This document shows positions 3,022-42,248 of a stretch of DNA of 64,000 nt, piece by piece. Both the position numbers and the translations under genes were made by a program. The DNA is from Vicinamibacteria bacterium (GTDB taxonomy: Bacteria; Acidobacteriota; Vicinamibacteria; Vicinamibacterales; JAENWD01), in the NCBI GenBank assembly GCA_963837165.1, contig CAWIMD010000002.1, forward strand, positions 1,031,029 to 1,095,028, read 5' to 3'. Under the pieces are notes generated by a model, which searched no databases, was not told the origin of the DNA, and saw only the letters and a list, made by a program, of their open reading frames with translations. Each line of letters starts with the position of its first letter. Within the stretch, counting starts at the first letter, position 1.

Positions 3022-4154
3022 CGCAGCAGCTGCCCCATGGCGCCACCGGCGTAGCCGGTCATCTCCAGGTAGCCGCGGCCCGCAATCGGGCGGCCGGCGC
3101 GCGTGCCCTTCACGTCGATGGCGCCCTCCCAGTACGTGACGCCCGTTCGCTGACCGATCAGCTCCTGCGCGTCAACGACCGGCGTGACCGACAAATCCAG
3201 CTGCTCGCCCGGCGCCCGTACCTGCCATTCGACCGGATAGGTGCCGCCGCTGCCCGGCGACGTCCAGCGCCGTCCCGGCGTGAGGGTGAAGTCACCGGCG
3301 GCGAGGTGGCGCGGCGCTCCTGACGAGGACACCAGCGTGCCGCTCGACTGCGGGGCCGCCGTGCCATCCTTCCCCCGCAGCTCGAACATCATCACGTCGG
3401 TGCCATCCGCGAGCTGGAGGGAGAACCAGTCCCATCCCTGCTGTGTCGGCTCGAGGAACGTGGTCCCGAACTCGTGGTCCATCCAGCTGAGGCCGCGGAC
3501 CCGGTAGCGTTCGCCGTCCAGGGTGATCGCCCCTTCGGTGGGCATCCGGGTGAGCGAGTAGTACTCCGATGCGTTGCCCGCCGTCGCGCCCTTCTGGCTG
3601 TATCCGTGGTCGCCATGGAGCACCGCGGGCCGATCCTCGGAAAGGGCCAGGTCGATGACGAAGTGCGGATCGCGCGCCTGCAGCCGGTGCGTGCCGTACT
3701 CGAGCCGGACCTCCCAGTCCTCGTTCCACACCCGGTAATCGAACATCGACGCGCCGGCCGTTCCGACGCCGGCGCGGTTCACGCGCTCGGCGAACAGGTG
3801 CCGCCGGTTCTCGACATCGGTGACGGCCACGTGGGCCACGTACAGGTCGCGCACGGCAAACGTGGACGGGTTCTTCGGAGCACGGTCCACGCCGACCCGG
3901 AAGAACGTCACCTGGTAGCCGAACCGCCGCCCCGTGTCCGTGTCCACATTGCCGGTGTAGTACCACCACTCGAGCTTGTAGGCCGGGTGGCTCACGTGGT
4001 CACGTGGCACCGACAACGGATAGTCGCGGGACGCCTGCTTCCAGTCCTGCCCGGTCGGGCCGGCGGCGCCGGGCGAGCCCGCCGCAGTCAGCAGCGCCAG
4101 CGCGGCCACGGCCCACCCCATCGACCGCGGCATCCGGTGTTGCATCGCCGTCAC
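3018..4154 (-). CDS. AttH/CrtC-like (hydroxyneurosporene-synthase-like lipocalin fold) secreted protein
   Basis: Signal peptide followed by HPAYKLEWWYYTGNV...GYQVTFFR, typical of the CrtC/AttH family. GTG 4154 overlaps the permease stop (GTGA). Downstream starts are possible. Confidence 0.7.
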   Translation of the reverse strand: MTAMQHRMPRSMGWAVAALALLTAAGSPGAAGPTGQDWKQASRDYPLSVPRDHVSHPAYKLEWWYYTGNVDTDTGRRFGYQVTFFRVGVDRAPKNPSTFAVRDLYVAHVAVTDVENRRHLFAERVNRAGVGTAGASMFDYRVWNEDWEVRLEYGTHRLQARDPHFVIDLALSEDRPAVLHGDHGYSQKGATAGNASEYYSLTRMPTEGAITLDGERYRVRGLSWMDHEFGTTFLEPTQQGWDWFSLQLADGTDVMMFELRGKDGTAAPQSSGTLVSSSGAPRHLAAGDFTLTPGRRWTSPGSGGTYPVEWQVRAPGEQLDLSVTPVVDAQELIGQRTGVTYWEGAIDVKGTRAGRPIAGRGYLEMTGYAGGAMGQLLR

Positions 4155-14283: not shown

Positions 14284-15244
14284 ATGGCGCACCGGCTTCT
14301 GCTGGCCGACGACAGCATCACCATCCAGAAAGTCATCGAGCTGACCTTCGCGGACGAGGGGATCGAGGTGGTGGCGGTCGGCGACGGCGACCAGGCCATC
14401 GCCCGTCTCGACGCCGAGCGCTTCGACATCGTCCTGGCGGACGCCGACATGCCCGGCAAGGACGGCTTCGAGGTGTCGGCCCACCTGCTGGCGCGCGACG
14501 GCGCCCGCCGCCCGCCGGTCATCCTGCTCACCGGCGCCTTCGAGCCGGTCGACGACGACCACGTTGCGCTGGTCGGCGCCCGCGCCGTCCTCGCGAAGCC
14601 ATTCGAGCCGCAGGTGCTGGTGGCCAGGGTGCGCGAGCTGCTGGCGACTCCCATGCCCCCGGAAGAGCCCGACGAGGAGCCCTCGGCCGCCGACTCGCTC
14701 ATCGCCGCGCCGGCTCCAGCGCCGGGCACCCAGTCCCCGGAGGACTACTTCGAGCGCCTGGACCGCGCGTTCGCCGGCCTCAATGTGCCGCTCGAGCCCT
14801 TCGACTCCGCTCAGGGCAGGCCCGGCGACTCCGCGCAGGGCAGGCCCGGCGACTCCGCTCAGGGCAGGCCCGGCGACTCCGCTCAGGGCAGCCCCCGCGA
14901 ATCCGAGCCGCACGCCACGTCCGGGCACGGCGACACCGGTGCCCGCACCGCCCGCCGCTTCCCCGGGCCCGTCCCCCGCTGCCGACCCTCCGCCGCATGG
15001 CGGCCTGGCTGACACCTTCAGCACCTTGCTTGCCGTCGAGCAGGGCGAGCTGCCGCCCTCGGCGCTCGACCCGCCGTCAACAGCCGCGGATGACGAGCTC
15101 GTGGACCGGATCGCCCGACGCGTCGTCGAGCAGCTCGGCGATGCCGCCGTCCGCGAGCTGGCCACCGACATCGTCTCGAGGACCGCCGAGCGCCTGGTGA
15201 AGGAAGAGATCGAGCGAATCAAGGCGGGGATTGGAGGAAGTTAG
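14284..15244 (+). CDS. Response regulator with a Pro-rich linker and helical C-terminal region; apparent frame break
   Basis: The receiver (LLADDSITIQKV...DIVLADADMPGKDG...KPF) reads in the frame of ATG 14284, which stops at 15012. A protein-like C-terminus (ELVDRIARRVVEQLGDAAVRELATDIVSRTAERLVKEEIERIK) continues in the next frame to TAG 15242-15244. Confidence 0.65.
14803..14898 (+). repeat. 24-bp tandem repeat x4 (GACTCCGCTCAGGGCAGGCCCGGC) inside the response-regulator linker
   Basis: Three near-identical units plus one degenerate unit, read directly from the sequence. They translate as DSAQGRPG x3 in the receiver frame. Confidence 0.9.
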
Positions 15245-15247
15245 CGT

Positions 15248-15273
15248 CAATTCCCAATTCCCAACGCCCAACC
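15248..15273 (-). repeat. Family F heptamer array, left arm (CAATTCC CAATTCC CAACGCC CAACC)
   Basis: Read directly. Inverted relative to 15307-15337. Confidence 0.85.
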
Positions 15274-15291
15274 GCTGCGGAGCGCAGTCGT

Positions 15292-15756
15292 TCAGCTGTC
15301 GGTCCCTTGGGAGTTGGGAGTTGGAGTTTGGGAGTTGATGTCGTCTCGCGCACTCGATTCCGTGCGCCTCCTGACGTTCGCCTCGATGAACCGGACGATG
15401 TCCTGCATCGGAGTGCCGGGCAGGAACACGCCGCCGATTCCCATCGCCTTCAGCTTCGGAATGTCCACGTCGGGGATGATCCCTCCGACGACGACGAGGA
15501 CGTCGTCGAGGCTCTGCCCGTGCAGCAGCTCCATCACGCGCGGGCAGATGTGGTTGTGCGCACCTGACAGGATCGAGAGGCCGATCACGTCGGCATCCTC
15601 CTGGAGCGCCGCCGACACGATCTGCTCCGGCGTCTGCCGCAGCCCCGTGTAGATCACCTCCATCCCGGCATCACGGAGCGCCCGCGCGATGACCTTCGCG
15701 CCGCGGTCGTGCCCGTCCAGGCCCGGCTTGGCAATCACCACTCGTATCGTCGGCAT
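15292..15756 (-). CDS. Methylmalonyl-CoA mutase B12-binding subunit
   Basis: [18 protein letters not shown] (DxHxxG cobalamin motif). ATG 15756, with an alternative at 15771. The last ~15 codons are encoded by the family F repeat arm. Confidence 0.85.
15307..15337 (+). repeat. Family F heptamer array, right arm (TTGGGAG x4, one unit degenerate)
   Basis: Read directly. Lies inside the 3' end of the B12-binding subunit ORF. Confidence 0.85.
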
Positions 15757-17669: not shown

Positions 17670-18920
17670 ATGTCGGTCCACGAGACGATCTTCGGCGCGA
17701 TGCTGCAGGAGTTCGACAGCGCCGCGCGCATCCTGAAGCTCGAGCCCGGGATCTGGCGGATCCTCACGCAGCCCAAGCGGCAGATCACGGTCTCGTGCCC
17801 CGTGCAGATGGACAACGGCGAGATCGAGGTCTTTACCGGCTACCGCGTCCAGTACAACATCAGCCTCGGCCCGGCCAAGGGCGGCATCCGCTACCACCCC
17901 GACGTCACGCTGGACGAGGTGACGGCGCTGGCCGCCTGGATGACGTGGAAGTGCGCCGTGGCGCAGATCCCCTTCGGCGGCGGCAAGGGCGGCGTCGTCT
18001 GCGACCCGACGCGGATGTCGCGCCGCGAGATCGAGGCGCTGACGCGCCGGTACATCGCCGAGATCATCGACGCCATCGGGCCCGACAAGGACGTGCCCGC
18101 GCCGGACGTCAACACGAACGAGCAGGTGATGGCGTGGGTGATGGACACCTACTCCATGCACATCGGCCACACCGAGACGGCCATCGTCACCGGGAAGCCG
18201 GTCGTGCTGGGCGGATCGCTGGGCCGGCGCGAGGCCACCGGACGCGGCGTGATGATCTGCACGCGCGAGGCGGCCAGGCACATGGAGATCGACCTGCGCG
18301 GCGCCACCGTGGCGGTGCAGGGCTTCGGCAACGTCGGGTCGGTCTCGGCGGACCTGCTGTCGCGCCTGTCGGCCAGGATCGTGGCCGTGACGGACTGGAA
18401 GGGCGGCGTGCGGAACGACGGCGGCCTGGACGTGCAGCGCCTGATCGAGTGGACGAAAGAGCATCAGACCGTCGACGGGTTCCCGGACGGCGACCCGCTC
18501 ACGAACGAGGAGATCTTCCAGCAGGAAGTGGACTTCCTGATTCCCGCGGCGCTCGAGAACCAGATCACGGCCGACAATGCGCGGGACGTCAAGGCCAGGG
18601 CCATCATCGAGGGCGCCAACGGGCCCACGACGCCCGAGGCCCACGAGATGCTGCACGCGCAGGGCGTGTTCGTCGTGCCCGACATCCTCGCCAACAGCGG
18701 CGGCGTGACGGGCTCGTACTTCGAGTGGGTCCAGAACCGCCACGGCTACTACTGGAGCGAGGCCGAGGTGAACCGCCTGCTCGAGGAGAAGATGGTCGAG
18801 GCCTTCAACGCCGTGCTGCGGATGGCGTTGAGGCACAAGACCGACATGCGCACGGCGGCCTACATCGTCGCCATCGATCGCGTGGCCACCGTCACGAGGC
18901 TGCGCGGGATGTATGCGTAG
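17670..18920 (+). CDS. gdhA: NAD(P)-specific glutamate dehydrogenase
   Basis: KGGIRYHP and PFGGGKGG motifs, with a Rossmann GFGNVG motif. Confidence 0.92.
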
Positions 18921-18931
18921 GGAGGTTGATA

Positions 18932-19040
18932 GGGGATCTGGGGGGCTGGGGATCTGGGGATCTGGGGGGCTGGGGATCTGGGGATCTGGGGGCTGGGGGC
19001 TGGGGATCTGACGATCTGGGGGTTGGGGGATCTGGGATCG
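18932..19040 (+). repeat. Family B octamer array (GGGGATCT / GGGGGGCT, about 14 units)
   Basis: Read directly. Starts 11 nt after the gdhA TAG. Confidence 0.95.
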
Positions 19041-19051
19041 TTCGCGCTCGT

Positions 19052-19074
19052 GTAGCGCAGGCCTTCAGGCCTGC
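19052..19074 (+). repeat. REP-like element a: GTAG-C-[GCAGGCC TTCA GGCCTGC]
   Basis: Perfect 7-bp stem, TTCA loop and a 5' GTAG. Confidence 0.8.
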
Positions 19075-19093
19075 CAACGGGCGCGCGGGCAGC

Positions 19094-19131
19094 CTGGGGG
19101 CTGCGGATCTGGGATCTGGGAGGTCTGGGGG
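19094..19131 (+). repeat. Family B array, degenerate (about 5 units)
   Basis: Reads GGGGGCT GCGGATCT GGGATCT GGGAGGTCT GGGGG. Ends 11 nt before the cupin ATG. Confidence 0.8.
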
Positions 19132-19142
19132 AGCATCGACAC

Positions 19143-19514
19143 ATGCAGAAGGTGAGCCTGGCCGACAGCTTCGCCCGCATCCACGAGCACTGGCGTCCGA
19201 TGTCGGTCGCGGAGCTGAACGGACAGGAGGTACGGCTCGTCAAGTTCCGCGGCGAGTTTCCCTGGCATCACCACGAGCACGAGGACGAGCTCTTCCTCGG
19301 CGTCCGCGGGCAATTCCGCCTCGAGTTCCGGGACCGCACCGTGGAGATCGGCCCGGGCGAGCTTCTCGTCGTGCCGCGCGGCACCGAGCATCGTCCCGTG
19401 GCCGACGAAGAAGTGGAAGTCCTGCTCTTCGAGCCGGCCGCCACGCGGAACACAGGGAACGTGGTGGACGAGTCCTTCACCGCGCCGCGGCAGAAACTGG
19501 AACCCCGAGGCTGA
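19143..19514 (+). CDS. Cupin domain protein
   Basis: HHHEHEDELFLGVRG...VVPRGTEHRP two-motif cupin signature. Confidence 0.75.
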   Translation: MQKVSLADSFARIHEHWRPMSVAELNGQEVRLVKFRGEFPWHHHEHEDELFLGVRGQFRLEFRDRTVEIGPGELLVVPRGTEHRPVADEEVEVLLFEPAATRNTGNVVDESFTAPRQKLEPRG

Positions 19515-19518
19515 CGGC

Positions 19519-20508
19519 TCAGGGCACCGCGGAGGACCTGCAGGTCGGGCGTTCGCCGAGCGGACCCAGCATGCTCAGCTCGGGAGCGTACGTGAGCAAC
19601 AGTGCGATGGAATCGCGCCAGTTGGCGAGGGCCCTCGCGGATTCCTGGGGGTCGATGCCCGAGGCCGGCAGCAGGTGGTCTCCGCCCGTCCGCAGAAGCT
19701 GGATCGCGCGTCCGTAATCGGACACCGCCGCCTCATTGCGCTGCTGCAGTTCTTCCACGATGCCCCGCAGGCGAAATGCGAACGCGCTGCTGGGGTGCAC
19801 GCGCAGCAGATGCTCGATCACCGGCAGCGCCTCGTCGCACCGCAGTTGCGACACGAGGTCGATCGCTTGCCGGCGCAGGTATTCCGCCCGCTCGCGCTGC
19901 GTCTGCGGCTCCAGGATCACGATCGGAAGGCACTCGCGGGTCGTTCCGCGCTGCGGCGCGTCTGGGAACGTCGTGACCGACAAACCGTAGCAGACGCGGT
20001 GTGCCCCGCGCGGCAGCCTGGCCACGGCGCGTCCGAAATCGACCCGCACGCGCACCTCGGCGCCGACGTCCATCTCGATGGCGTCATTCAGCATCGCCGC
20101 GCCGGAGGCATCCGTCACCGTGACCGGTGCCGGCAGTGCCAGGCGCTGCCCGCCATCCTCCAGCCACACGTTGACCCAGCGCCCCTGGGCCAGAGCTGGG
20201 CCAGACCCGGCCCGTTCCACCGCACCGAGTACCTCGATCCACGCCGGGTCGTCCCGAAACAGCGGGCACCCCTTCGCCGTGCCGTCAGCCAGGTAGAGCG
20301 GCGAGCACCCGCCCCACGTGAGGGCGCCCAGCTCCAATTGCGGCAGTCGTAGCTGTCCCGGGTAGAATTCGACGGAGCTGGCGGTACTGACGCGCAAACC
20401 CCACTCCTCGGGGGACGCGGATGAGGCTGGCTGCGCCCCGGCGGGGCGGGGGATCACCCCACCGAGCGAGACGACCAGCAGCAGTCGACAGGCCCAGCGC
20501 ACGCCCAC
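19519..20508 (-). CDS. Hypothetical secreted protein with a TPR-like helical C-terminus
   Basis: N-terminal signal peptide. No family motif recognised. Convergent with the cupin gene, with a 4-nt gap. Confidence 0.45.
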   Translation of the reverse strand: MGVRWACRLLLVVSLGGVIPRPAGAQPASSASPEEWGLRVSTASSVEFYPGQLRLPQLELGALTWGGCSPLYLADGTAKGCPLFRDDPAWIEVLGAVERAGSGPALAQGRWVNVWLEDGGQRLALPAPVTVTDASGAAMLNDAIEMDVGAEVRVRVDFGRAVARLPRGAHRVCYGLSVTTFPDAPQRGTTRECLPIVILEPQTQRERAEYLRRQAIDLVSQLRCDEALPVIEHLLRVHPSSAFAFRLRGIVEELQQRNEAAVSDYGRAIQLLRTGGDHLLPASGIDPQESARALANWRDSIALLLTYAPELSMLGPLGERPTCRSSAVP

Positions 20509-20620
20509 GGGAGATGCAAGAAGGCAGCCCGGCGTTCCGCGTCAGGAGCGCCCATCTCCCTCGCAGGACTGCATCTGGGGCAGACGAATCCGCGTCTCAG
20601 CTCACGAAAACGGTTGCCCG

Positions 20621-20665
20621 GAACCGTGGACATGTGAACCCGTGAACCCGAGAACCCGTGAACCT
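20621..20665 (-). repeat. Family E array (GGTTCACG/GGTTCTCG, about 5 units, read on the minus strand)
   Basis: The minus strand reads TAG ACG AGGTTCACGGGTTCTCGGGTTCACGGGTTCAC..., directly after the sulfite reductase stop. Confidence 0.9.
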
Positions 20666-20668
20666 CGT

Positions 20669-22515
20669 CTACACGCTGCACTCCCCGTCCAGGATCTCCG
20701 GCGTGTACGTGGTCGTCTCGCCCAGGTCGATGAAGTCCTCGGGCGTTGCGGTCTCCTCGGTCAGCGGCTCGAGATCGTGCAGCGTCGCTTTCACGTCGTC
20801 CAGGCCGACGCGCTGGAAGAATGCCGTCGGCACTTCGCCGTCGTGCCGCTTGTCCATGATACAGGCCAATCAGCCGCTCCAGTGCGATCGGATCCCGGCG
20901 CGCCGGGATCTTGGCGGCGAGACGGCCGAACGTGACGCCATCTGCCGTGGCGCCGCCGCCGACCATCACGAAATACTGCGGCACCGCGCGGCCGCCGACC
21001 TTCCGGATGCTGCCCTGGAATCCGACGCCCGCCACATGATGCTGCCCGCAGCCGTTCGGGCATCCGCTCATCTTGACGACGAGGCCCGGCGCCGCGGCCG
21101 CCAGGTCGGGACGCGCCTCGAGCGCGTCGTGGAGCGATCGGCCGAGCCCGCGCGACTGGGTCACCGCCAGGCGGCAGGATTCGGCGCCCGGGCAGCTCGT
21201 CACGTTGGTCGGCAGCCCCGACTCGGCGCGTCCGAGCCCCGCGGCGGCCAGACGTTCGTAGACGGCCTCGACCCGCTTGATGGGAATCCAGCGCAGCACG
21301 AGATCCTGATCGATGGTGACGCGCGCCGTGCCGTCGCCAAACGACTGCGCGACCAGGGCAATCGCGCGGAACTGCTCGGCGGTCAGGTCGCCCAGCGGCA
21401 ACGTCACGGTCACGGCCGCATGGCCCGCCTGCTTCTGCGGACGCACGTTGCGCCGCTGCCATGCCGCGAAATCCGCGTCGACGACGGTCAGCGCCGGCCG
21501 GCGCTCCGGGTGAATCCCGGGCCCGGTCGTCGCCTGACCGAGCACGCGGGCGGCAATCTCCGCGACTGAGGGCGGCGCGGGCCGCTGCCAGTCCGGCGCG
21601 GCCTCCTGCGGCGGGTGCTGGGGATCGAACGGCAGTGCGGGTACGCCTTCGGCCCGCACCTCCTCGAGCTCGCGGCGGTACTCCGCCTCGAACCGGTCCC
21701 ACCCGATCGCCTTGATCAGGAACTTCATCCGGTTCCGCTGCTTGTGCTTGTAGTCGCCGAGCCGGTGGAACACACGAAGCACGGCCTCGGCCGACGCCAG
21801 CATCTCCTCCACGGGCAGGAACGCGTGCAGCTCGCCCGCGCCGCGACACATGGTCGCGGTGCCGCCGCCCGCGATGACGCGGAACCCGCGGACCGAACGG
21901 CCGTCGACGTCCCGTACGCGTCCCTGCCACCCGATGTCGTGGATGGCCGTGAGCGCGTGATCCTCCGCGCATCCCTCGAACGCGATCTTGAACTTGCGCG
22001 GCAGCGAGCCGCTCAGCCGGTGCCGCAGGAAGTAGCGCGTCAGCGCCTCGCTGTACGGCGTCACGTCGAACGCCTCGTCGGCGGCGATGCCGGCCCAGGG
22101 GCACGCGGTGATGTTGCGCACCGAGTTGCCGCACGCCTCTCGCGTCGTCAGGCCGTCCTCGGCCAGCCGTCGCATCGCGGGCTCCACGTCGTGAAGCTTC
22201 ACGAAGTGCATCTGGATGTTCTGGCGCGTGGTGATGTGCGACCAGCCGCGCGAGTACTGCTCCGAGACCTCGGCCAGCGCCTCCATCTGGCGCGCCGTCA
22301 CGAGCCCCTGCGGGATCTTGATGCGCAGCATCTGCGCGTCCTCGGCCTGGCGCTGCCCGTACGTGCCGCGCACGAGCCGGAAGGCCCGCCACTGGTCCGG
22401 GGCTGATCTCGCCGCGCTCGAACTTCCCGAGCGTATCGGCGAACTCGTCGATGTCGGCTTCGCTGGCAAACGACAGCCTGGCGCGGCCGAGCGTCGTCAC
22501 GTCCGTGGTGGCCAT
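20669..22515 (-). pseudogene. Ferredoxin-type sulfite reductase (siroheme/4Fe-4S) interrupted by two 1-nt frame breaks (or assembly indels)
   Basis: The N-terminus MATTDV...FERGEISP (frame of ORF 20791..22515) continues as DQWRAFRLVRGTYGQRQ in the frame of ORF 20454..22469. The break is near 22397-22403. The C-terminus ...IALERLIGLY continues as MDKRHDGEVPTAFFQRV...GECSV in ORF 20669..20869, with the break near 20855-20868. Cluster motifs CPGAESCR and SGCPNGCGQH are present. Confidence 0.8.
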
Positions 22516-22521
22516 GGCAAA

Positions 22522-23298
22522 TTACCCCCGTCCCTCGAATTCCTGTTGGTCGCCGTCGGACACGACCTCGATGACGCCCCCGATGAGCGACGCGAGTGCC
22601 GACGACGGCGCCGATGACGATCGTGCCGGCCAGCTCGCCGTCCACGGGCGCCGCCGCCAGCTCGTCGAGCCGTCCCGACCAGGCGCGGGCGCCCGGATGA
22701 CCGGCGCCGAGCACCACGGCGACAGGCGTCGATGCCGTCCATCCGGCCTGCAGCAGTCGCGCGGCAATCGCAGCCCGCGTGGCCAGCCCCATCATGACCA
22801 CCACGGTGGCGGCCTGCGGCGTCATGCCCGTCCAGCACCGGCTGCCACGCCGTCGTCCGCGTGACCCGACACGATGACGACGGCGGTGGAGAGCGCCACG
22901 ATGGGTGACCGGGATCGCCGAGCAGCGCCGGTGCGGCCAGCGACGCGCTGACGCCCGGGCACGACCTCCACGCTGATCCCAGCCGCTTTCAACGCGAGGG
23001 CCTCTTCCCCGCCGCGCCCGAACAGAAACGGATCCCCGCCCTTCAGGCGCACGACACGCCGGCCGCGCGAGGCCGCGCGAATCATCAGCCGGTTGATCGC
23101 GTCCTGGGTCATCGCGTGCCGCCCGCGCCGCTTGCCGACGTAGAACCGGCGCGCCCGCTTCGCAATCCCGACCACGGCATCCGACACGAGCGCGTCGTAC
23201 AGCACCAGGTCGGCCCGGCGCAGCAGCGCGACCGCGCGCCGCGTCAGCAGCCCGGGGTCTCCCGGTCCCGCACCGACGAGCGCGACCCGTGCGCTCAT
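22522..23298 (-). pseudogene. cobA: Uroporphyrinogen-III C-methyltransferase with at least 5 frame breaks
   Basis: ATG 23298. VALVGAGPGDPGLLT and LKGGDPFLFGRGGEE read in one frame. VSASLAAPALLG, AIPVTHRGAL and STAVVIVSGH then read in three successive frames (22888-22953). The C-terminal TVVVMMGLATRAAIAARL...GTIVIGAVV and the tail to 22522 are in further frames. Confidence 0.75.
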
Positions 23299-27426: not shown

Positions 27427-27449
27427 GTAGCGCGGCCCTTCAGGGCCGC
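27427..27449 (+). repeat. REP-like element b: GTAG-C-[GCGGCCC TTCA GGGCCGC]
   Basis: Perfect 7-bp stem, TTCA loop and a 5' GTAG. Same architecture as 19052-19074 but with a different stem sequence. Confidence 0.8.
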
Positions 27450-29425: not shown

Positions 29426-30808
29426 ATGCTCTCCCGCCGCCGATTTCTGGCCACGCTGGCCGCGTCGCTGACCGCAGGCCGCGGCGCGCTCCATGCCGGT
29501 CCGCGCTCCCCGGCGTGGCACACGCCCGTTCCCGAGGCGGGCTGGGGGTACGGACAGGCGTTCGGCCTGGCCGTACGCCAGAACCGCCGCCTCCCCGAGG
29601 GGCTGCCACCCTCGCTGCCGAGAGCGGTCCCGCGGCTGCCGCCGCTGGACGCCGCGCAGACCGGCCGGCTCCTGCGCGCCCGGTTCCCCGATCTGAAACA
29701 GCGATTCCTGTTCGAGTACTACCCGTGGTACGGCAACAACCCCTGGCGGCACTGGAACCAGTGGGACCGCGTCCCTCCGTACGACCTGGCGGTGACGTCC
29801 GTGCCGGCTCTCGGCCCGTACGATTCCCGCGACCCCGCCGTCGTCGAACGGCACGCCCGCTGGATCGCGGAGGCCGGCGTCGGGGGCGTGAACATCAGCT
29901 GGTGGGGCCGTGGGAGCTGGGAAGACCTCGCGACGCCGCTCGTGATGGACGTCATGCGCGATCACGGCCTCAAGGTGGCGTTCCACCTCGAGCCGTACAA
30001 CGATTCGCGCACCGAAAACTACGCCGGCGACATCCAGTACCTGCTGCGTGAGTACGGCGACAAGCGGCGGTGGGACTGCTTCCTGCTCCTGCGGGACGCC
30101 GGCGGCAGGGAAGTGCCGGTCTTCAAGTCGTTCGCGACCCTGCTGCCACAGACCTCGACCGACTGTCACGGCGTCACGTCCCGTGTGGCGCTCTGGCGTC
30201 CCGACGGAACGTGGCGCCGTCAGACGGACACGGTACGCGACACGTTCCGAGGCGACTTCGACCGGATCTACCTGCTCGCCGACTCCGGCGCGCTGGACCA
30301 CGTCCAGGTCTGCGGCTTCGACGGCATCGCGATGTACGACAGCTTTCTCAGACCGACGCGGTGGCCGGATCTGGCAAAGGCCTGCCGCGACTTCCACCTC
30401 GTGTACTCGTTCAACATCAACTCGGGATTCGACGGCATCGCCCAGCGCAACGTGCCGGCGGACTCCTGTTATCGGCCGACCCCGTTCGAGCCGCCGGCCA
30501 ACCTCGATTTCACCGATCCGGACCAGCGGGAGCTGGCGCGCCGGCTGTCGGAACACCGCATGGAGGAATCGTTCCGGGCCACGCTGATCGTGCAGACCGA
30601 CCCGGCGCTGACCGACACCGGCGACGGCTTCTTCCTCGTCTACATCAACTCGTTCAACGAGTGGCACGAGGGCACGGCGATGGAGCCGGCGCGCGATCAC
30701 GCGGCGCTGCTGCCGCAGGAGTCGCCGTACGGCTACCACAACGCCGCCCAGGGCAACTACCGGCTGGCGTACCTCACCGAACGGCTGGGCGAACTGCTCG
30801 CCGGTTAA
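29426..30808 (+). CDS. Glycoside hydrolase family 99-like (endo-alpha-mannosidase-like), Tat signal
   Basis: Twin-arginine signal MLSRRRFLATL. Motifs FEYYPWYG, ISWWGRG and NSFNEWHEGT resemble GH99. Confidence 0.62.
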   Translation: MLSRRRFLATLAASLTAGRGALHAGPRSPAWHTPVPEAGWGYGQAFGLAVRQNRRLPEGLPPSLPRAVPRLPPLDAAQTGRLLRARFPDLKQRFLFEYYPWYGNNPWRHWNQWDRVPPYDLAVTSVPALGPYDSRDPAVVERHARWIAEAGVGGVNISWWGRGSWEDLATPLVMDVMRDHGLKVAFHLEPYNDSRTENYAGDIQYLLREYGDKRRWDCFLLLRDAGGREVPVFKSFATLLPQTSTDCHGVTSRVALWRPDGTWRRQTDTVRDTFRGDFDRIYLLADSGALDHVQVCGFDGIAMYDSFLRPTRWPDLAKACRDFHLVYSFNINSGFDGIAQRNVPADSCYRPTPFEPPANLDFTDPDQRELARRLSEHRMEESFRATLIVQTDPALTDTGDGFFLVYINSFNEWHEGTAMEPARDHAALLPQESPYGYHNAAQGNYRLAYLTERLGELLAG

Positions 30809-30925
30809 TCCCCAGCCCCCCAGATCCCCAGATCCCCAGCCCCCCAGATCCCCAGATCCCCAGATCCCCAGATCCCCAGATCCCCAGATCCCCAGATCCC
30901 CAGATCCCCAGATCCCCAGATCCCC
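30809..30925 (-). repeat. Family B octamer array (12 x AGATCCCC plus 2 x AGCCCCCC on the plus strand; GGGGATCT on the minus strand)
   Basis: Read directly. Spans the entire spacer between the GH99 TAA (30806-30808) and the amidohydrolase TAG (30925-30927). Confidence 0.97.
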
Positions 30926-32241
30926 TAGTTCGTTCCGACGTCCTTCCCCCCGCGCTTGTAGATGACCCCGCCCTTCATGACGAACGCGGGGTGCTCGAGG
31001 ATGGCGATGTTCGCGAGGGGATCCCCGTCCACCGCGACCAGGTCGGCGAAGCGGCCGGCCTGCACCGAGCCCACGCGATCGCTCCAGCCGAGCAGGTCCG
31101 CCGCCCAGGTCGTCGCCGCCTCGATGGCCTCGGTCGGCGTCATGCCCCACTCGACCATCTTGGCGAACTGCTTGCCGTTGTCGCCGTGCGGGTAGACGCC
31201 GGCGTCGGTGCCGTAGGCCATCTTCACGCCCGCCTTCCACGCCTTCCGGAAGTTCTCGCGCTGCGTCCGTCCGACCCTGCGCTCCTTCTCGAGGATCTTG
31301 TCGGGGTACCCGCGCTTCTTGTACTCCGTCATGATGTAGTCGTCGTTGTAGATGTCCATCACGAGGTAGGTGCCGTGCTCCTTCGCGAGCCGGATGCCCT
31401 CGTCATCGATGAAGGAGGCGTGCTCGACCGAATCGACGCCGGCCTTGATGGCGCGCTTGATGCCTTCGGCGCCGTGGGCGTGGGCCGCCACCCTGCGGCC
31501 CCACATATGGGCTTCCTCGACGAGCGCGTCGAGCTCTTCCTGCGAGTACTGCGGCGCGCCTTCCGAGTCCTCCTCCGACAGCACGCCCGCCGTGGCGAGC
31601 ACCTTGATCACGTCGGCGCCCTGCTTGATGTTCGTGCGCACGAGCTTGCGGATCTCGTCCACACCGTCGGCGATGCCGCTGAACGTCTTGAACATCACGT
31701 ACGGCGAGTAGCCGTTCAGGTCGCCGTGGCCGCCGGTCGCGCTGATCGCGAACCCCGAGACACGCATTCGCGGCCCGGGAATGTCGCCGCGCTCGATCGC
31801 GTTTCTGAGCGCGATGTCCACGTACTCGCCGGCACCCACGTTCCGGATCGTGGTGAAACCGGCCTCGAGCGTCCGCCGCGCGTAAAGGTGCGCCAGGATC
31901 GCGCTGTCGATCGGGCTGCGCTTGAAGAGGTCTTCGTAGAAGTTGTCGCCGGGCTGCCCGGTGACGTGCGTGTGGCAGTCGATGAAGCCCGGCAGCAGCG
32001 TGGCGCCGCCCAGGTCGATCACCTCCGCACCCGCCGGAACGGCCAGCCCGGAGCCCACGGCCGCAATCCGATCGTTTTCGACGATCACGACCGCATTCGC
32101 GGCCGGCGCGCCGCCCGAGCCGTCGAGCAGCCGCGCCGCCTTCACCGCGATCACGTGCGGCGCGGGGGCCTGTCCGTGGCCGACCGCCACCGCCCACAGC
32201 ACCGCCACCGCAATTACACATGCCCGACGCCACATCTGCAT
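30925..32241 (-). CDS. Amidohydrolase family metallo-hydrolase, secreted
   Basis: GFIDCHTHV metal-binding motif and a signal peptide after MQMWRRACV (ATG 32241). The ORF track start at 32268 lies in repeat I. Confidence 0.8.
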   Translation of the reverse strand: MQMWRRACVIAVAVLWAVAVGHGQAPAPHVIAVKAARLLDGSGGAPAANAVVIVENDRIAAVGSGLAVPAGAEVIDLGGATLLPGFIDCHTHVTGQPGDNFYEDLFKRSPIDSAILAHLYARRTLEAGFTTIRNVGAGEYVDIALRNAIERGDIPGPRMRVSGFAISATGGHGDLNGYSPYVMFKTFSGIADGVDEIRKLVRTNIKQGADVIKVLATAGVLSEEDSEGAPQYSQEELDALVEEAHMWGRRVAAHAHGAEGIKRAIKAGVDSVEHASFIDDEGIRLAKEHGTYLVMDIYNDDYIMTEYKKRGYPDKILEKERRVGRTQRENFRKAWKAGVKMAYGTDAGVYPHGDNGKQFAKMVEWGMTPTEAIEAATTWAADLLGWSDRVGSVQAGRFADLVAVDGDPLANIAILEHPAFVMKGGVIYKRGGKDVGTN

Positions 32242-32260
32242 GGATGGTCCCTGTAAGTTG

Positions 32261-32288
32261 TCAGTCATCAGTCTTCAGTTGTCAGTCC
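32261..32288 (+). repeat. Family I heptamer array (TCAGTCN x4)
   Basis: Reads TCAGTCA TCAGTCT TCAGTTG TCAGTCC. Confidence 0.8.
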
Positions 32289-32320
32289 CCAGCCTCGAGC
32301 TTCGACGTCGCGTCTTCGGT

Positions 32321-32360
32321 AGAACCGAGAACCGTGAACCGTGAACCGAGAACCGAGAAT
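32321..32360 (-). repeat. Family E heptamer array (GGTTCTC/GGTTCAC, about 5 units, read on the minus strand)
   Basis: The minus strand reads TAG ATTCTCGGTTCTCGGTTCACGGTTCACGGTTCTCGGTTCT, directly after the stop at 32361-32363. Confidence 0.9.
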
Positions 32361-33962
32361 CTACCGGTTCCGATAAACGACCGCCCGCCACACCTCCACT
32401 CGAGTGCCCGTGGAGTGCGGGTTGGCCGCGCCCGCCGTCACGATCTTCACGGTGTGCATGCCGGGCTTCAGCCCGTAGACGTGCCAGAGCGCGTCATCGT
32501 GGGTGCGCTCGGGGATCCAGCTGTCGATGGGCCTGGCGGCCTTGCCGTCGAGCAGGACGTCCGCGCGGCCCCCCTGCTGCGACAAGCCGCCCAGCAGCGT
32601 CGCCGCTGTGCCGGTGAACGTGAACGTGACCTCCGCGCCGGCGGCATCCGTCGAGAACCCGACCCCCCGTGCGCCGTCCCTCCCCGGACCGATCGGTTCC
32701 CAGCCGCGCCCCCACTGCCAGGCGGGCCGATCGGCGGGCACGACCTCGGTGGGCACGCCCATGTCCCACTGTTCGAGCGCCGGCGGCTTCGCGGTCTGCG
32801 CCGGGATGACGAGCGCGTCCTGCTCGACCCGGCCGCCCGCCAGTCGCACGACCTGCTCGGCCCGCTTCATCGTGGACGAGACGATGTCGTCGAAGGAGTA
32901 GTCGGTGTAGGAGAACTTCTTCCCGGCGAGCGCGGGGATGCCGGCCTTCCACTGGTCCGGGATCCGGTCGTAGCCCAGCATGACGCCCAGGATGCCTGCC
33001 GCGCTCGACGGGTTGCAGTCCGAGTCCTGGCCGGATCGGGTCGCGACGTCCAGCGTCCGGTCGAAGTCTCCGCCCCCGTACAGCAGGCCGAGGGCCACGT
33101 ATCCCCCGTTCAGCTTCGCGTCGATGTTGAAGGGCTCGAGCGACCCGTCCGGGCACGCGTCGTTCCTGTCCCACGTGTCCTCGAGCAGCTGCCACGTCGC
33201 CTTCCAGTCGTCGGGGTGTGCGTCGTGCCAGGCCAGCACGTCGCGGATCACCGCCGCGTACTGGCTGCCCGTCGGCAACGCGGCCAGGCCCGCCTCGACC
33301 ACCCGGTGCGGGTCGGTCTCGAAGAAGGCCGCGGCGTACATGCCGGTGATGAAGAGGCCGCCGTACAGACCGTCGCCGGAGTTCATCACGCGTCCGACGC
33401 GCAGGCAGTAGTCACGCGCCGCCCGGGGAAGCCCTGGCGTCATCAGGCCGATGAAGTCCGACTCGATCTGGAAGTCGATGTCGTTGGCGTGCGGGTTGTA
33501 CCCCGGCTCGCCGGACCGCGGCGCCTCGATCCCCAGGTTCAGCAGCCGTCGGGCGCCGGCGTTGGCGTGCCAGAGGTTGTACTGGGACGTTCGGAACGCC
33601 TCGCCGTACTGCGCCGTCGTGGCATCGAGGCCGAGGCGGTCCATCACGGCCGCGAACGTCATCTCGACGTAGAGATCGTCCTGGTCGATGGCGTTGCCGA
33701 CGTGATCGGGCTGCCACCTCGGCAGCGGGCCTTCGATGATCCGGCCGTTGGAGTGGAACTCGGTCGGGGCGCCGAACGAGACGCCGATCATCTGTCCGGC
33801 CCAGCCGCCGCGCACCCGGTCCTCGAACTCGGCTCTCGACAGCCGCCGCTCGGTCCCCGCGGCGCGCCCGGCCGGGCCCGACGTGAGCACGAGTCCCAGG
33901 GTCAGGACCGCCAGCGCGACCGGCCGGAAACAGCGTGACATGCGGTGAGTTTGTACCCGCAC
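32361..33962 (-). CDS. ADP-ribosylglycohydrolase family protein, secreted, with a C-terminal beta-sandwich extension
   Basis: GGWAGQMIGVSFG...DDLYVEM...SGQDSDCNPSSAAGILG motifs of the ARH/DraG fold. Signal peptide present. Confidence 0.78.
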   Translation of the reverse strand: MRVQTHRMSRCFRPVALAVLTLGLVLTSGPAGRAAGTERRLSRAEFEDRVRGGWAGQMIGVSFGAPTEFHSNGRIIEGPLPRWQPDHVGNAIDQDDLYVEMTFAAVMDRLGLDATTAQYGEAFRTSQYNLWHANAGARRLLNLGIEAPRSGEPGYNPHANDIDFQIESDFIGLMTPGLPRAARDYCLRVGRVMNSGDGLYGGLFITGMYAAAFFETDPHRVVEAGLAALPTGSQYAAVIRDVLAWHDAHPDDWKATWQLLEDTWDRNDACPDGSLEPFNIDAKLNGGYVALGLLYGGGDFDRTLDVATRSGQDSDCNPSSAAGILGVMLGYDRIPDQWKAGIPALAGKKFSYTDYSFDDIVSSTMKRAEQVVRLAGGRVEQDALVIPAQTAKPPALEQWDMGVPTEVVPADRPAWQWGRGWEPIGPGRDGARGVGFSTDAAGAEVTFTFTGTAATLLGGLSQQGGRADVLLDGKAARPIDSWIPERTHDDALWHVYGLKPGMHTVKIVTAGAANPHSTGTRVEVWRAVVYRNR

Positions 33963-35224: not shown

Positions 35225-36309
35225 GGCACATCTCCCGCCGGGCCGCCCTCGTCGTCATCACGCTGTCGCTGCTGAGCGCGTGTTCCAGCGGCCGTCCCGA
35301 TCGTCCCGTGGTCGCGCTGGTCATGAAGTCGCTCGCCAACGAGTTCTTCAAGACGATGGAGGATGGGGCCAGGGCGCACCAGGCCGCCCATGCGGCGGAC
35401 TACGAGCTGGTGGCGACGGGCATCAAGGACGAGCAGGACGTCGCGCGCCAGATTGCAATCGTCGAGCAGATGATCGCGCGGGGCGTGGATGCCATCGTCC
35501 TCGCCCCGGCCGATTCGAAGGCCCTGGTCGGGGTGGTCAAGAAGGCGCTCGACGCCGGCATCGTCGTCGTGAACATCGACAACCGGCTCGACCGCGACGC
35601 GATGGTCGAGCGCGGCATCTCGGTCCCCTTCGTGGGCCCCGACAACCGGAAGGGCGCCCACGCGGTGGGCGCGTACGTGGCGAAGCGCCTGAAGCCCGGC
35701 GATCCGGTGGCCATCATCGAGGGCGCTCCCAACGCGTTCAACGGCGAACAGCGCCGCCTCGGGTTCGGCGAGGCCGCACGCGAGGCCGGTCTCGTCGTGG
35801 TCCGATCGCAGACGGCCTACTGGGAAACCGCGCGGGCCCACCAGGTGGTGACCGCCCTCATCAGTGAACGTCCTGACGTGAAGGCCATCCTCTGTGCGAA
35901 CGACAACATGGCTCTCGGCGCAGTGGCGGCGCTCAAGGCGGCGGGCAGGAGCGGTCAGGTGCTGGTCGCCGGCTTCGACAACATCTCCGCCGTGCACGAC
36001 CTCGTCCAGAGCGGCGGCGTGGTCGCCACCGCCGACCAGCACGGCGATCGGCTCGCCGTGTACGGCATCGAGTACGCGCTGGCCGGCCTGCAGGCACGGG
36101 GCACCACCCGCCCCGATCGTGAGACGCCCGTCGACCTGATCACGCCGCAGAACACAAAGGACACAAAGGACACAAAGGACACAAAGGACACAAGGAAAAG
36201 GACACGAAGGACACGAAGGACACGAAGGACACGAAGACCCAGAACCCATAAACCCACAACCCCACAAGCCCACAAACCCACAAGCCCCACAAACCCACAA
36301 ACCCATTAA
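35221..36309 (+). CDS. Sugar ABC transporter substrate-binding lipoprotein (ribose-binding type)
   Basis: ATG 35221 overlaps the LacI stop (ATGA). Lipobox LLSACSS and an RbsB-like fold. The last ~55 codons (NTKDTKDTKD...TRRTRRTRR...KPTSPTNPQTH) are read-through of repeat arrays C1 and H. Confidence 0.82.
   Translation: MRHISRRAALVVITLSLLSACSSGRPDRPVVALVMKSLANEFFKTMEDGARAHQAAHAADYELVATGIKDEQDVARQIAIVEQMIARGVDAIVLAPADSKALVGVVKKALDAGIVVVNIDNRLDRDAMVERGISVPFVGPDNRKGAHAVGAYVAKRLKPGDPVAIIEGAPNAFNGEQRRLGFGEAAREAGLVVVRSQTAYWETARAHQVVTALISERPDVKAILCANDNMALGAVAALKAAGRSGQVLVAGFDNISAVHDLVQSGGVVATADQHGDRLAVYGIEYALAGLQARGTTRPDRETPVDLITPQNTKDTKDTKDTKDTRKRTRRTRRTRRTRRPRTHKPTTPQAHKPTSPTNPQTH
36152..36237 (+). 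repeat. Family C nonamer array (ACACAAAGG x4, degenerate junction, ACACGAAGG x4)
   Basis: Read directly. Confidence 0.95.
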
Positions 36310-36336
36310 CCAACAAACCCATACCCTCCCAGACCC
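36238..36336 (+). repeat. Family H array (CCCACAAN-type, about 11 units of 7-9 nt)
   Basis: Reads CCCAGAA CCCATAAA CCCACAAC CCCACAAG CCCACAAA CCCACAAG CCCCACAAA CCCACAAA CCCATTAAC ... Confidence 0.9.
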
Positions 36337-36340
36337 AGCG

Positions 36341-37291
36341 ATGCGAAGGAGAATCGCGACCGAGAGTGCCGGTCTCGTCGGCGTGCTCGTGCTGCTTGCC
36401 GCGGCCTTCGGCGTGCTCACCAGCCACTTCCTCTCCTGGACGACCGCGCGCGCGCTTGCGAATGAGGCGCCGGATCTTCTGCTGGTCGCGACCGGGATGA
36501 CGCTCGTCATCCTGACCGGAGGCATCGACCTCTCCGTGGGCTCGCTCCTGGCGCTGTCGGGCGCCGTGTTCGGGCAGCTGATTGCGCGGAGCGGAGCCGC
36601 GCTGCCCCTGGCGGTGGCTGGGGCAATTGTCACCGGCGCGGGCTGCGGCTGGCTGAACGGCTGGATCACCGTGCGCTGGCGGTTGCCGTCGTTTCTCGTG
36701 ACGCTTGCGATGCTCGAAATGGCGCGCGGCGCGGCCTACCTGGTGACCTCCTCGCAGACGGTGTACCTCGGCGCGCGCGTCGACGTCGTATCGGCGCCGC
36801 TCGTCGCCGGCCTCGGGCCGCCGGTGCTGGTGGCAGTGGCGGTCGTGGCGCTCGGCCAGTGGACGCTCGACCGGCTCGTGTTCGGGCGACAGGTCTTCGC
36901 GGTGGGCACCAACGAGGAATCGGCGAGGCTGGCGGGCATCTCGCCGGGCCGTATCCGCATTGCCGTGTTCACGCTGTCGGGCCTGCTGGCCGGTGCGGCG
37001 GCAGTCGTGCAGGCCGGGCGGCTCGCGGCGGCCGATCCGAACGCGGGCATGGGGTTCGAGCTCGAGGCGATCGCCGCCGTGGTCATCGGCGGGACGAGCC
37101 TGACGGGCGGCCGCGGCTCGGTCGTCGCATCCGCGCTGGGGGCGCTGGTCATCCTGGTCCTCGGAGCCGGCCTCGCGCAGATGGGAGTCGGGGAGCCGAC
37201 CCGGCGCCTGGTGACGGGCGCGGTGATCGTGTCGGCGGCTGTTACGGACTATTACCGGGGAGGATGGGGGCACAGGAGGATGGGAGGATAG
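36341..37291 (+). CDS. Sugar ABC transporter permease (RbsC type)
   Basis: 10-TM BPD-type permease (LTGGIDLSVGS, AVGTNEESARLAGI). The stop TAG 37289-37291 lies inside repeat D1. Confidence 0.85.
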   Translation: MRRRIATESAGLVGVLVLLAAAFGVLTSHFLSWTTARALANEAPDLLLVATGMTLVILTGGIDLSVGSLLALSGAVFGQLIARSGAALPLAVAGAIVTGAGCGWLNGWITVRWRLPSFLVTLAMLEMARGAAYLVTSSQTVYLGARVDVVSAPLVAGLGPPVLVAVAVVALGQWTLDRLVFGRQVFAVGTNEESARLAGISPGRIRIAVFTLSGLLAGAAAVVQAGRLAAADPNAGMGFELEAIAAVVIGGTSLTGGRGSVVASALGALVILVLGAGLAQMGVGEPTRRLVTGAVIVSAAVTDYYRGGWGHRRMGG

Positions 37292-37325
37292 GAGGATAGG
37301 AGGATGGGAGGATAGGAGGATGGGG
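37260..37325 (+). repeat. Family D octamer array (GAGGATGG / GAGGATAG, 8 units)
   Basis: Read directly. Contains the rbsC-type stop and the ribokinase ATG. Confidence 0.95.
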
Positions 37326-41355: not shown

Positions 41356-41439
41356 CCCCTATCCTCCCATCCTCCCATCCTCCCATCCTCCCATCCTCCC
41401 ATCCTCCCATCCTCCTATCCTCCTATCCTCCCATCCTCC
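41356..41439 (-). repeat. Family D octamer array (TCCCATCC/TCCTATCC on the plus strand, about 10 units)
   Basis: Read directly. The minus strand reads GGAGGATGG... ending 4 nt before the remnant ATG. Confidence 0.95.
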
Positions 41440-41455: not shown

Positions 41456-42118
41456 ATGATGATCTCACGCCAGCTCGCCCGATTCGTGCCCGCGGCCGGA
41501 CTCGGCCTGATCCTCGCGACGATGATGTCCGCCGTACCGGCAGCCGCACCAGCCGACGGCTGGGTGTCGCTCTTCGACGGCAAGACGCTGGACGGCTGGA
41601 AGGCCAGCGACGAGCCAGGCACCTTCCGCGTCGAGGACGGCGCCATCGTCGTCAATGGGCCGCGGTCGCACCTGTTCTACGTCGGGCCCGTCAACAACCA
41701 CGTGTTCACGAACTTCGAGTGGAAGGCCGACGTGATGACGTTTCCGGGGTCGAACTCGGGAATGTACGTCGACACCGAGTACCAGGAGACCGGCTGGCCC
41801 TCGAAGGGCTACGAAGTCCAGGTCAACAACTCGCACACCGATCCGATCCGGACGGGAAGCCTCTACGGAATCGTCAACGTGCTCGAGCGGTTCGTGCCGG
41901 ACAACGAGTGGTTCACGCAGGACATCACCGTCCAGGGCAAGCGCGTCGTGGTGAAGATCAACGACCGGGTCGTGGTGGACTACACGGAGCCCGACAACCC
42001 GCTGCGGGGCGCCGATCAGGCCAACCGCCGCATCGCCCCCGGCACCTTCGCCCTGCAGGGGCACGACCCGAACAGCAAGGTCCTCTACAAGAACATCATG
42101 GTTCGGACTCTGCCGTAG
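41456..42118 (+). CDS. DUF1080 (3-keto-disaccharide hydrolase-like) secreted protein
   Basis: WVSLFDGKTLDGWK...ALQGHDPNSKVLYKNI is characteristic of DUF1080. Signal peptide present. Confidence 0.8.
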   Translation: MMISRQLARFVPAAGLGLILATMMSAVPAAAPADGWVSLFDGKTLDGWKASDEPGTFRVEDGAIVVNGPRSHLFYVGPVNNHVFTNFEWKADVMTFPGSNSGMYVDTEYQETGWPSKGYEVQVNNSHTDPIRTGSLYGIVNVLERFVPDNEWFTQDITVQGKRVVVKINDRVVVDYTEPDNPLRGADQANRRIAPGTFALQGHDPNSKVLYKNIMVRTLP

Positions 42119-42121
42119 CGA

Positions 42122-42164: not shown

Positions 42165-42165
42165 T

Positions 42166-42246: not shown

Positions 42247-42248
42247 CA

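Follow-up and report, generated by a model that had tools for sequence, protein, structure and literature searches.

The 222-nt spacer (18921-19142) that separates gdhA, which ends at 18920, from a cupin gene, whose ATG stands at 19143, carries an array of G-rich octamers interrupted by a hairpin. It lies in a stretch of 64,000 nt of Vicinamibacteria DNA, the whole of which was analysed here (hereafter the window). Array and hairpin belong to known kinds of element, short-unit tandem repeats and GTAG-tagged repetitive extragenic palindromes (REPs), neither of which seems to have been described in Vicinamibacteria; a literature search on tandem repeats in Vicinamibacter, Luteitalea or Acidobacteria retrieved nothing relevant. 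In cyanobacteria, heptamer arrays were reportedly described by Mazel and colleagues in 1990 as short tandemly repeated repetitive (STRR) sequences. STRRs comprise several tandem families, mostly with 7-nt units, that are intergenic and share one genome, where each unit recurs at many loci. The phase-variable contingency simple sequence repeats (SSRs) of Haemophilus and Neisseria have units of 1-5 nt and lie inside the reading frames or promoters of surface or variable genes.

Among described systems, the class of GGGNATC repeats of Xanthomonas and Nostoc comes closest to the gdhA-cupin array (PMC4692102). These are intergenic, stop-proximal and variable in length, and they have been proven to form G-quadruplexes (G4s) in vitro (PMC4692102). 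Their unit is GGGNATC or GGGGA(C/T)T, four units (the minimum for one G4) are preferred, and the G-rich strand is either the coding strand within 50 bp past a stop codon or the non-coding strand upstream of a gene, while a proposal cited by Rehm et al. holds that the heptamers match the polymerase footprint (PMC4692102). The TAACTGA heptamer repeats of Beggiatoaceae, Cyanobacteria and Bacteroidetes have been proposed to act post-transcriptionally (PMC4679880). GTAG REPs are GC-rich palindromes of 20-40 bp with an unpaired GTAG at the end of the stem-loop, typically present in more than 100 copies, extragenic and mainly downstream of genes; a 2013 survey recorded none in Acidobacteria, where it found only tyrosine transposases flanked by terminal inverted repeats (PMC3733652).

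The gdhA-cupin spacer

We consider it likely that the spacer combines two independent kinds of repeat, an array driven by slippage and a GTAG REP inserted into it, and that its G4 potential is a by-product. The layout given in the first-pass annotation of the window, with 14 units, a hairpin and about five degenerate units, agrees with the sequence in its coordinates and features, and Pfam matches confirm the two neighbouring genes that it had named (ELFV_dehydrog and Cupin_2). The locus reads as follows:

17670-18920, plus strand: gdhA (Glu/Leu/Phe/Val dehydrogenase family), the upstream gene, 416 aa, with a TAG stop at 18918-18920; Pfam PF00208 (ELFV_dehydrog, 1.4e-81) and PF02812 (1.1e-59)
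18921-18931, plus strand: linker GGAGGTTGATA, 11 nt, unique, between the gdhA stop and the left array
18932-19039, plus strand: left octamer array, 14 head-to-tail units GGGGATCT/GGGGGGCT and variants, from Tandem Repeats Finder (TRF) and parsing by eye
19040-19094, plus strand: non-repeat segment of 55 nt that interrupts the array, a compound hairpin by sequence and folding
19052-19074, plus strand: GTAG-tagged REP-type hairpin GTAG-C-GCAGGCC-TTCA-GGCCTGC, assigned by family membership
19095-19131, plus strand: right degenerate array, about five units of the same family and orientation as the left (TRF, 19105-19121)
19127-19133, plus strand: likely Shine-Dalgarno sequence GGGGGAG of the cupin gene, contributed by the final array unit, 9 nt ahead of the start codon
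19143-19514, plus strand: Cupin_2 gene, the downstream neighbour (PF07883, 1.1e-12)

TRF places the left array at 18932-19036, with periods of 8, 16 and 24. Parsed by eye, it consists of seven units of GGGGATCT (written GGGGAUCU in its RNA form), two each of GGGGGGCT and GGGGGCT, and one each of GACGATCT, GGGGGTT, GGGGGATCT and GGGATC; one-G differences in unit length could include homopolymer errors if the assembly is a long-read one. The octamer array is not a chance product, the 16-mer GGGGATCTGGGGATCT having 20 matches in the window at up to two mismatches against 0.02 expected. The right array reads TGGGGGC TGCGGATC TGGGATC TGGGAGGTC TGGGGG, and to judge from its sequence the last unit likely supplies the ribosome-binding site of the cupin gene. 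The linker GGAGGTTGATA contains GGAGGT, which is similar to the GGGAGGT found distally in the right array.

A sister strain carries the same locus at a different length. The gdhA protein is exactly matched on ENA contig ERZ25039539:contig_13815, which is 98-99% identical to the window across 21.5 kb and on which the same cupin start codon is called (123 aa). Its gdhA-cupin spacer measures 268 nt, the additional 46 nt (about six more units, about 20 in total) lying at the stop-proximal end of the left array, directly after the 11-nt linker. The hairpin is identical, and two substitutions in its 3' flank (19083 and 19090) disrupt the outer stem and leave the inner stem intact. Over the 21.5 kb compared, 8 of 13 arrays differ in length (+47 at 14900, -14 at 15768, +46 at 18931, -39 at 20616, +24 at 30865, -14 at 36193, +4 at 36285 and +1 at 37281), and all six indels of at least 12 nt fall in arrays, the other indels being mostly single bases. 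Such variability between near-identical strains marks these arrays as slippage-prone repeats, with copy number differing by whole units between close genomes as in slippage-type SSRs or variable-number tandem repeats. The array is a hypervariable repeat, for which slippage would be the mechanism.

With regard to the order of events, deletion of 19040-19094 joins GGGATC to T GGGGGCT and thereby restores an in-phase unit, GGGATC-T, which favours insertion of a REP into an existing array over seeding of the array by the REP. Both orders had been put forward in the first-pass annotation. Insertion of a REP-bearing segment gains support from this restored phase and appears plausible from the sequence; seeding is not supported, given arrays without REPs, such as the twin array described below, and REPs without arrays in relatives (L017, L094 and L032).

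30808-30925, minus strand: twin array, ATCCCCAG x14.8 (equal to GGGGATCT on the minus strand), from TRF and pattern matches; it takes up all of the DNA separating two convergent stop codons, contains no hairpin and is 24 nt longer in the sister strain

Like the GGGNATC class, the gdhA array is made of G-rich tandem units containing GGGGATC and is not tied to surface or virulence genes. It differs in its period of 8 (the octamer GGGGATCT alternating with GGGGGGCT, instead of a heptamer) and in its copy number, 14 units in the window, about 20 in the sister strain and 14.8 in the twin, against a preference for four. It starts 11 nt past the stop with the G-rich strand in sense, and among the G4-capable arrays of the clade this strand is divided into 28 sense and 22 antisense downstream of genes and 22 and 16 upstream. 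Moreover, the host here belongs to the Acidobacteriota, the G-rich unit is one among more than 100 types, and G4 formation is predicted, whereas it was proven in vitro for the GGGNATC repeats.

The G4 potential of the spacer is real in silico. Its plus strand carries 19 G-tracts of at least three and 14 of at least four, slightly below the count of more than 15 tracts of four or five that had been announced together with a strong G4 potential; the latter part of that claim stands, since G4Hunter, the scoring that the first-pass annotation had suggested, gives 2.04 for 18932-19040 and 1.58 for 19094-19131. The left array (13 G-tracts, two non-overlapping canonical G4 motifs), the right array and the twin are the strongest G4Hunter regions of the window, and the predicted folding energy of the gdhA 3' untranslated region (UTR) RNA in ViennaRNA/RNAfold falls to -144 kcal/mol with the G4 model from -95 without it.

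Several familiar categories were considered for the spacer and rejected. A clustered regularly interspaced short palindromic repeat (CRISPR) array would have unique spacers between its units, and there are none. A phase-variable contingency locus shares with the array the change of copy number by slippage, but here the array follows a housekeeping dehydrogenase gene and is confined to the DNA that separates the gdhA stop from the ribosome-binding site of the cupin gene, and both open reading frames (ORFs) are intact after the length change. An intrinsic (Rho-independent) terminator was dismissed, as the GC-rich stem-loop is followed by CAACGGGC and not by a U-tract; a terminator scan of 18400-19700 returned none, and a sigma-70 promoter scan of the same interval found nothing. 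Finally, a known Rfam family was set aside, as no match at gathering score was obtained over the whole window.

A family of GTAG-tagged hairpins

The hairpin of the spacer is a member of a clade-wide, dispersed family of GTAG-tagged, REP-type hairpins. It is extragenic, lies 132 nt past the gdhA stop in sense orientation, and consists of a perfect 7-bp stem and a 4-nt loop, with GTAG (19052-19055) one base ahead of the stem; the central 60 nt fold with -33.9 kcal/mol (z = -3.15), and 0 of 200 shuffles are as stable. An exact-sequence search of the window for further copies, with up to three mismatches, returned one copy only, and the family was detected only once the stem sequence was allowed to vary.

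To place the locus among its relatives, we used the closest gdhA sequences in GTDB genomes, which belong to Vicinamibacteria/Vicinamibacterales metagenome-assembled genomes (73-80% aa identity) and then to Gemmatimonadota (about 60%); relatives were represented by samples of 10-20 kb. A scan of all perfect hairpins, made with no prior assumptions, singled out GTAG as a frequent 5' neighbour of hairpins in Vicinamibacteria and not in Gemmatimonadota. A perfect stem of at least 6 bp follows within 0-2 nt at 58 of 3074 Vicinamibacteria GTAG sites (1.9%), against 0.7-0.9% for most control tetramers and 0.68% for GTAG in Gemmatimonadota; the sole control exception, TAGG, overlaps GTAG-G. Of these 58 hairpins, 17 have a TTCA loop. 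GTAG-tagged hairpins with a TTCA loop number 16 in 860 kb of Vicinamibacteria and 0 in 918 kb of Gemmatimonadota, and the tag is found on 16 of 51 TTCA-loop hairpins in the clade, on 0 of 21 in this outgroup, and on all three in the window, at 19052 (plus), 27427 (plus) and 42166 (minus). The two further window members are:

27427-27449, plus strand: second member of the hairpin family, GTAG-C-GCGGCCC-TTCA-GGGCCGC
42166-42189, minus strand: third member of the hairpin family, GTAG-GGCCGAAC-TTCA-GTTCGGCC

The latter sits between two arrays of unrelated units, GGTTCAC and CCTGATC. Three members in 64 kb would scale to a few hundred per genome, as extrapolated from the window alone. The REP-like call of the first-pass annotation is therefore upheld and extended to a family defined by GTAG, a GC-rich stem of 7-9 bp and a TTCA loop. 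Across species the stems vary, while GTAG, the pyrimidine before it (often in the context GTAC or CGT) and the loop are conserved, as seen in a MAFFT alignment whose members were chosen for perfect stems and in which several rows are mis-registered. As for the four bases that precede the tag, 5 of 24 REP-like hairpins, taken from different genomes (L011, L012, L015 and L111), have GTAC there, and two window copies (one at 42190-42193) have CGT-G. The conserved tag may thus be longer than GTAG, approximately GTRYGTAG.

The family shares with GTAG REPs, REPINs (REP doublets forming hairpins) and bacterial interspersed mosaic elements (BIMEs) the unpaired 5' GTAG, a GC-rich stem of 7-9 bp and a short loop (PMC3733652; PMC2817692). 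It also resembles GTAG REPs in its extragenic downstream position, its multiple copies and the head-to-head or tail-to-tail dimers present in relatives (L017, L094, L032 and L010), and L017, L019, L032 and L094 carry inverted doublets (GTAG-hairpin ... hairpin-CTAC) in the region that follows gdhA. What sets the Vicinamibacteria members apart is that they keep the TTCA loop and the pyrimidine before GTAG while their stems vary. In REP/RAYT systems (REPtrons) the genome encodes a cognate REP-associated tyrosine transposase (RAYT, a Y1 HUH enzyme), whose gene is flanked by REPs. The one REP cluster inspected, that of L032, flanks genes that resemble, when read by eye and not searched, those for a HIT-family protein, an IHF/HU-like protein and ribosomal protein S1 (rpsA), none of which is transposase-like.

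Short-period arrays across the Vicinamibacteria

The description of the spacer in the first-pass annotation was accurate and missed that the locus exemplifies a pattern which extends through the genome and the clade. In the window, whose G+C content is about 70%, a TRF census of arrays with a period of 7-9 nt and at least 3.5 copies returned 17, nearly all of them intergenic. By number of loci, the units include TCAATCG (3), GGTTCAC/GTGAACC (4), nonamers of the CACRAAGG type (4) and GGGAGGAT (2), besides AACCCACA, CCTGATC, TTGGGAG and others, and the layout of array, central hairpin and array recurs at 15230-15350, 32255-32365 and 42110-42250. TRF, applied to every locus fetched, gave the following densities:

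Vicinamibacteria, 80 loci: 860 kb, 159 arrays, 18.5 per 100 kb
Gemmatimonadota: 918 kb, 23 arrays, 2.5 per 100 kb

This difference makes the arrays a property of the clade. Of the 159 Vicinamibacteria arrays, 103 have a period of 7, 23 of 8 and 25 of 9, and together they comprise 117 distinct canonical units. They occupy spacers between tandem (80), convergent (39) and divergent (22) genes, against a background of 247, 107 and 110. No significant sense-strand bias was detected for arrays in tandem spacers, either in GC skew (47:31, p = 0.09) or in purine content (46:33, p = 0.18). Among arrays near 3' gene ends, 53 of 76 lie at most 5 nt from the stop codon or overlap it, and such abutting on stop codons fits expansion up to the limit of constraint. 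Several overlap the stop by 1-8 nt, the stop often being part of the first repeat unit.

As in cyanobacterial STRRs, there are multiple families, intergenic, whose units recur across loci; phylum and units differ, and the inverted array pairs with long hairpins that are frequent in Vicinamibacteria are not known to be a feature of STRRs. The TAACTGA repeats are likewise abundant intergenic heptamer direct repeats near gene ends, but they have one conserved unit, usually in 2-6 copies just upstream of starts, whereas Vicinamibacteria have many units, in longer arrays that occur near the starts as well as the ends of genes (PMC4679880).

In the orthologous spacers, many relatives have a stop-adjacent array downstream of gdhA with a unit unrelated to that of the window (AGGGTTCA, ACTCGGG, GGTGCCCAG x20, GGTGATTG, GTAGCCTGG or AGTGGGT), and others have GC-rich hairpins or no spacer. 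L025, L039 and L107, which are 92-93% identical in gdhA, have in common an AAATCCC array beside the stop and differ in the rest of the spacer, and at nucleotide identities of 85% or less the array units differ among orthologous gdhA spacers. Wherever a relative's contig covers the complete spacer, the neighbour of gdhA is not a cupin gene, so that this adjacency seems specific to the species of the window. In most relatives (L010-L012, L016, L017, L019, L020, L026, L031-L034, L038 and others) the next gene after gdhA is a conserved one in convergent orientation, with ...GCGATCAGCTCC... on its reverse strand. In the comparison of orthologous spacers that the first-pass annotation had proposed, the sister strain keeps both array and hairpin; among GTDB genomes (at most 80% aa identity) and JGI metagenomes (at most 86%) it yielded different downstream genes, different repeats and no intermediate state, so these orthologues do not decide between REP first and array first.

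Arrays also occur in pairs within one spacer, as inverted copies in 16 cases, as a direct copy in 1 and with unrelated units in 7. Half of the inverted pairs (8/16) lie between convergent genes, against 23% in the background (one-sided binomial p ~0.017, by our own arithmetic). They form long hairpins with tandem-repeat arms, the longest of about 370 nt with a 12-mer unit (L007), and variant units are mirrored between the two arms. Examples are L007 17639-18009, L003 18301-18520, L098 4254-4382, L017 14745-14827, L013 16849-16949 and, in the window, 15230-15350.

The Vicinamibacteria are abundant and poorly studied soil Acidobacteria, whose intergenic DNA appears dominated by hypervariable arrays of 7-9 nt units, with array-armed palindromes and the GTAG/TTCA-loop REP family as further parts of the landscape. 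The arrays offer strain-typing markers for metagenomics and are a likely cause of assembly breaks. With them, the question of why some bacteria accumulate heptamer repeats can be put to a second, independent lineage in addition to cyanobacteria and xanthomonads. The clade-wide array landscape, and above all the array-armed palindromes, merits a separate study.

Origin of the spacer and alternative explanations

In the scenario that we favour, the array of unit GGGGATCT would grow and shrink by replication slippage in the DNA from the gdhA stop to the ribosome-binding site of the cupin gene, where it meets no constraint; it would be mostly neutral and expand as far as the stop codon, the REP and the ribosome-binding site permit. 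MutS-type mismatch repair copes with loops of up to about 4 nt, and those of 7-9 nt exceed its range, so arrays with such units would escape this repair and change length quickly. The array may have grown from an ancestral G-rich Shine-Dalgarno region at a short gdhA-cupin junction, as the likeness between the GGAGGT of the linker and the GGGAGGT ... GGGGGAG of the right end would suggest. The GTAG REP most likely arrived within the 55-nt segment in a pre-existing array and would thus have divided it into a longer stretch on the left and a shorter one on the right. By analogy with REPs elsewhere, as in enterobacteria, the hairpin probably works at the RNA level, where it would terminate or protect the gdhA mRNA as a 3' stem-loop.

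Some observations sit uneasily with this scenario. With no U-tract after the hairpin in the terminator scan, its role as a terminator is tentative, and no RAYT gene was seen in the DNA covered, which comprises the window and samples of 10-20 kb from relatives. The order of events is read from phase continuity, with a boundary that is ambiguous by 1-2 nt at a short unit, and the empty site was found in no relative, the nearest after the sister strain having 86% aa identity and a different spacer. Length variation was seen against one sister genome, so assembly error may underlie some of the differences. Finally, units recur within the genome (GGGGATCT twice, TCAATCG three times, GGGAGGAT twice) and related units recur across species (GGTTCA-like and AAATCCC-like), which purely random seeding does not predict and which hints at selection or at a spreading mechanism.

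The arrays might be a previously undescribed system of bacterial 'satellite' DNA in the lineage, actively generated or maintained as its main transcript-end or insulator elements, which we regard as unlikely; arrays of 7-9 nt units, often in inverted pairs with hairpins of up to about 370 nt, would then owe their origin or upkeep to, for instance, template switching from one hairpin arm to the other or a factor peculiar to the lineage, and the gdhA array would be functional, with the G4 or the REP as a structural block in place of the usual inverted partner. Rather unlikely in our view is that the arrays are functional and selected as a class, as spacers or insulators, as Rho-loading or terminator elements, or as sites for lineage-specific proteins. 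Such selection would account for the strong enrichment in one clade, for the recurrence of units at several loci per genome and of related ones across species, for the persistence of the AAATCCC array at about 7% gdhA divergence, and for the excess of inverted over direct and unrelated pairs (16, 1 and 7) with its enrichment between convergent genes, which resembles bidirectional terminator hairpins. However, 117 units without significant strand bias speak against a single binding factor or RNA motif, array length changes even from one near-identical strain to the other, and orthologous spacers differ in unit at 85% identity or less; the arrays at the gdhA-cupin locus are, moreover, direct, which makes a long array-armed hairpin impossible there.

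A selected G4 element, acting in the gdhA 3' UTR or on the non-template strand on termination, mRNA stability or cupin translation, seems to us improbable. Its appeal lies in the G4Hunter score of the left array, the two canonical motifs and the energy gained in the G4 model, and in the position of the G-rich strand, which is the coding strand directly past the gdhA stop, as preferred by GGGNATC repeats that form G4s in vitro (PMC4692102). Across the clade, however, the G-rich unit is one of 117 types, canonical G4 motifs are found in just 46 of 159 arrays (29%) and without strand preference, so that the G4 potential is better read as incidental. Equivalent positions are taken by arrays that are not G-rich, such as TCAATCG and ACACAAAGG, the twin between convergent genes gives one G-rich and one C-rich transcript, and near-identical strains differ by six units at copy numbers far above the four tracts needed. 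G4 potential is thus probably a side effect of unit composition that neither defines nor maintains the array class, and it should not be equated with function. That a REP or transposase generated the arrays, through hairpin-seeded slippage or through RAYT-type cleavage and repair leaving tandem duplications on both sides, is very unlikely: two of the three window REPs (19052 and 42166) do have arrays on both sides, but most arrays have no REP (30808-30925, 15768, 36152, 37258 and 41361, for instance), the REP doublets of L017, L094 and L032 have no arrays, the units on the two sides of 42166 are unrelated, and no RAYT gene was found in the DNA examined; taken together, these leave seeding by REPs unsupported. 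We give practically no credence to an assembly or sequencing artefact behind the repeats or their length variation. The contig names of the sister assembly suggest long reads, and one-base differences in G-runs (GGGGGCT versus GGGGGGCT) are typical of long-read error; yet such arrays appear in dozens of independent short- and long-read assemblies from different studies, and strain differences are whole multiples of the unit (14, 24 and 46-47 nt). Two independent repeat kinds therefore remain our preferred reading, under which a striking spacer is explained as the overlap of two ordinary repeat classes.

A few observations concern the wider surroundings. Three consecutive copies of GGGGATCT matched viral contigs once, at 3780-3960 of IMG/VR contig L163, where a four-copy AGATCCCC run stands amid many spaced GTCCCCA/ATCCCCA motifs upstream of an ORF; this is probably an unrelated high-GC phage regulatory region. 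Exact-protein look-ups for the window genes at 30925-32268 and 29426-30808 gave no record, probably owing to different start calls or strain differences. Differences between the two near-identical strains (the window against L081) cluster at 20214-21189 and 22350-22899 (about 150 of 180 single-nucleotide differences in about 1.5 kb), spanning the boundary between a TPR gene and a sulfite-reductase-like gene and beyond, which suggests recombination tracts from a more distant relative.

Other arrays of the window adjoin coding sequences or have longer periods. At 14802-14905 an array with a period of 24 nt, CGACTCCGCTCAGGGCAGGCCCGG x4.3, is longer by 47 nt (two units) in the sister strain. At 36152-36336, ACACAAAGG x10 and AACCCACA x10 stand back to back, and together they make up an A/C-rich leader of 185 nt that immediately precedes the ATG at 36341; in the sister strain their lengths change by -14 and +4. 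The Shine-Dalgarno-like GGGAGGAT occurs eight times at 37258-37324 and ten times at 41361-41439, both arrays being in sense orientation directly upstream of start codons (37320, plus strand; 41352, minus strand). The former contains mini-ORFs (ATG GGA GGA TAG), and both the stop codon of the gene before it (TAG, 37289-37291) and the ATG of the gene after it are part of its sequence.

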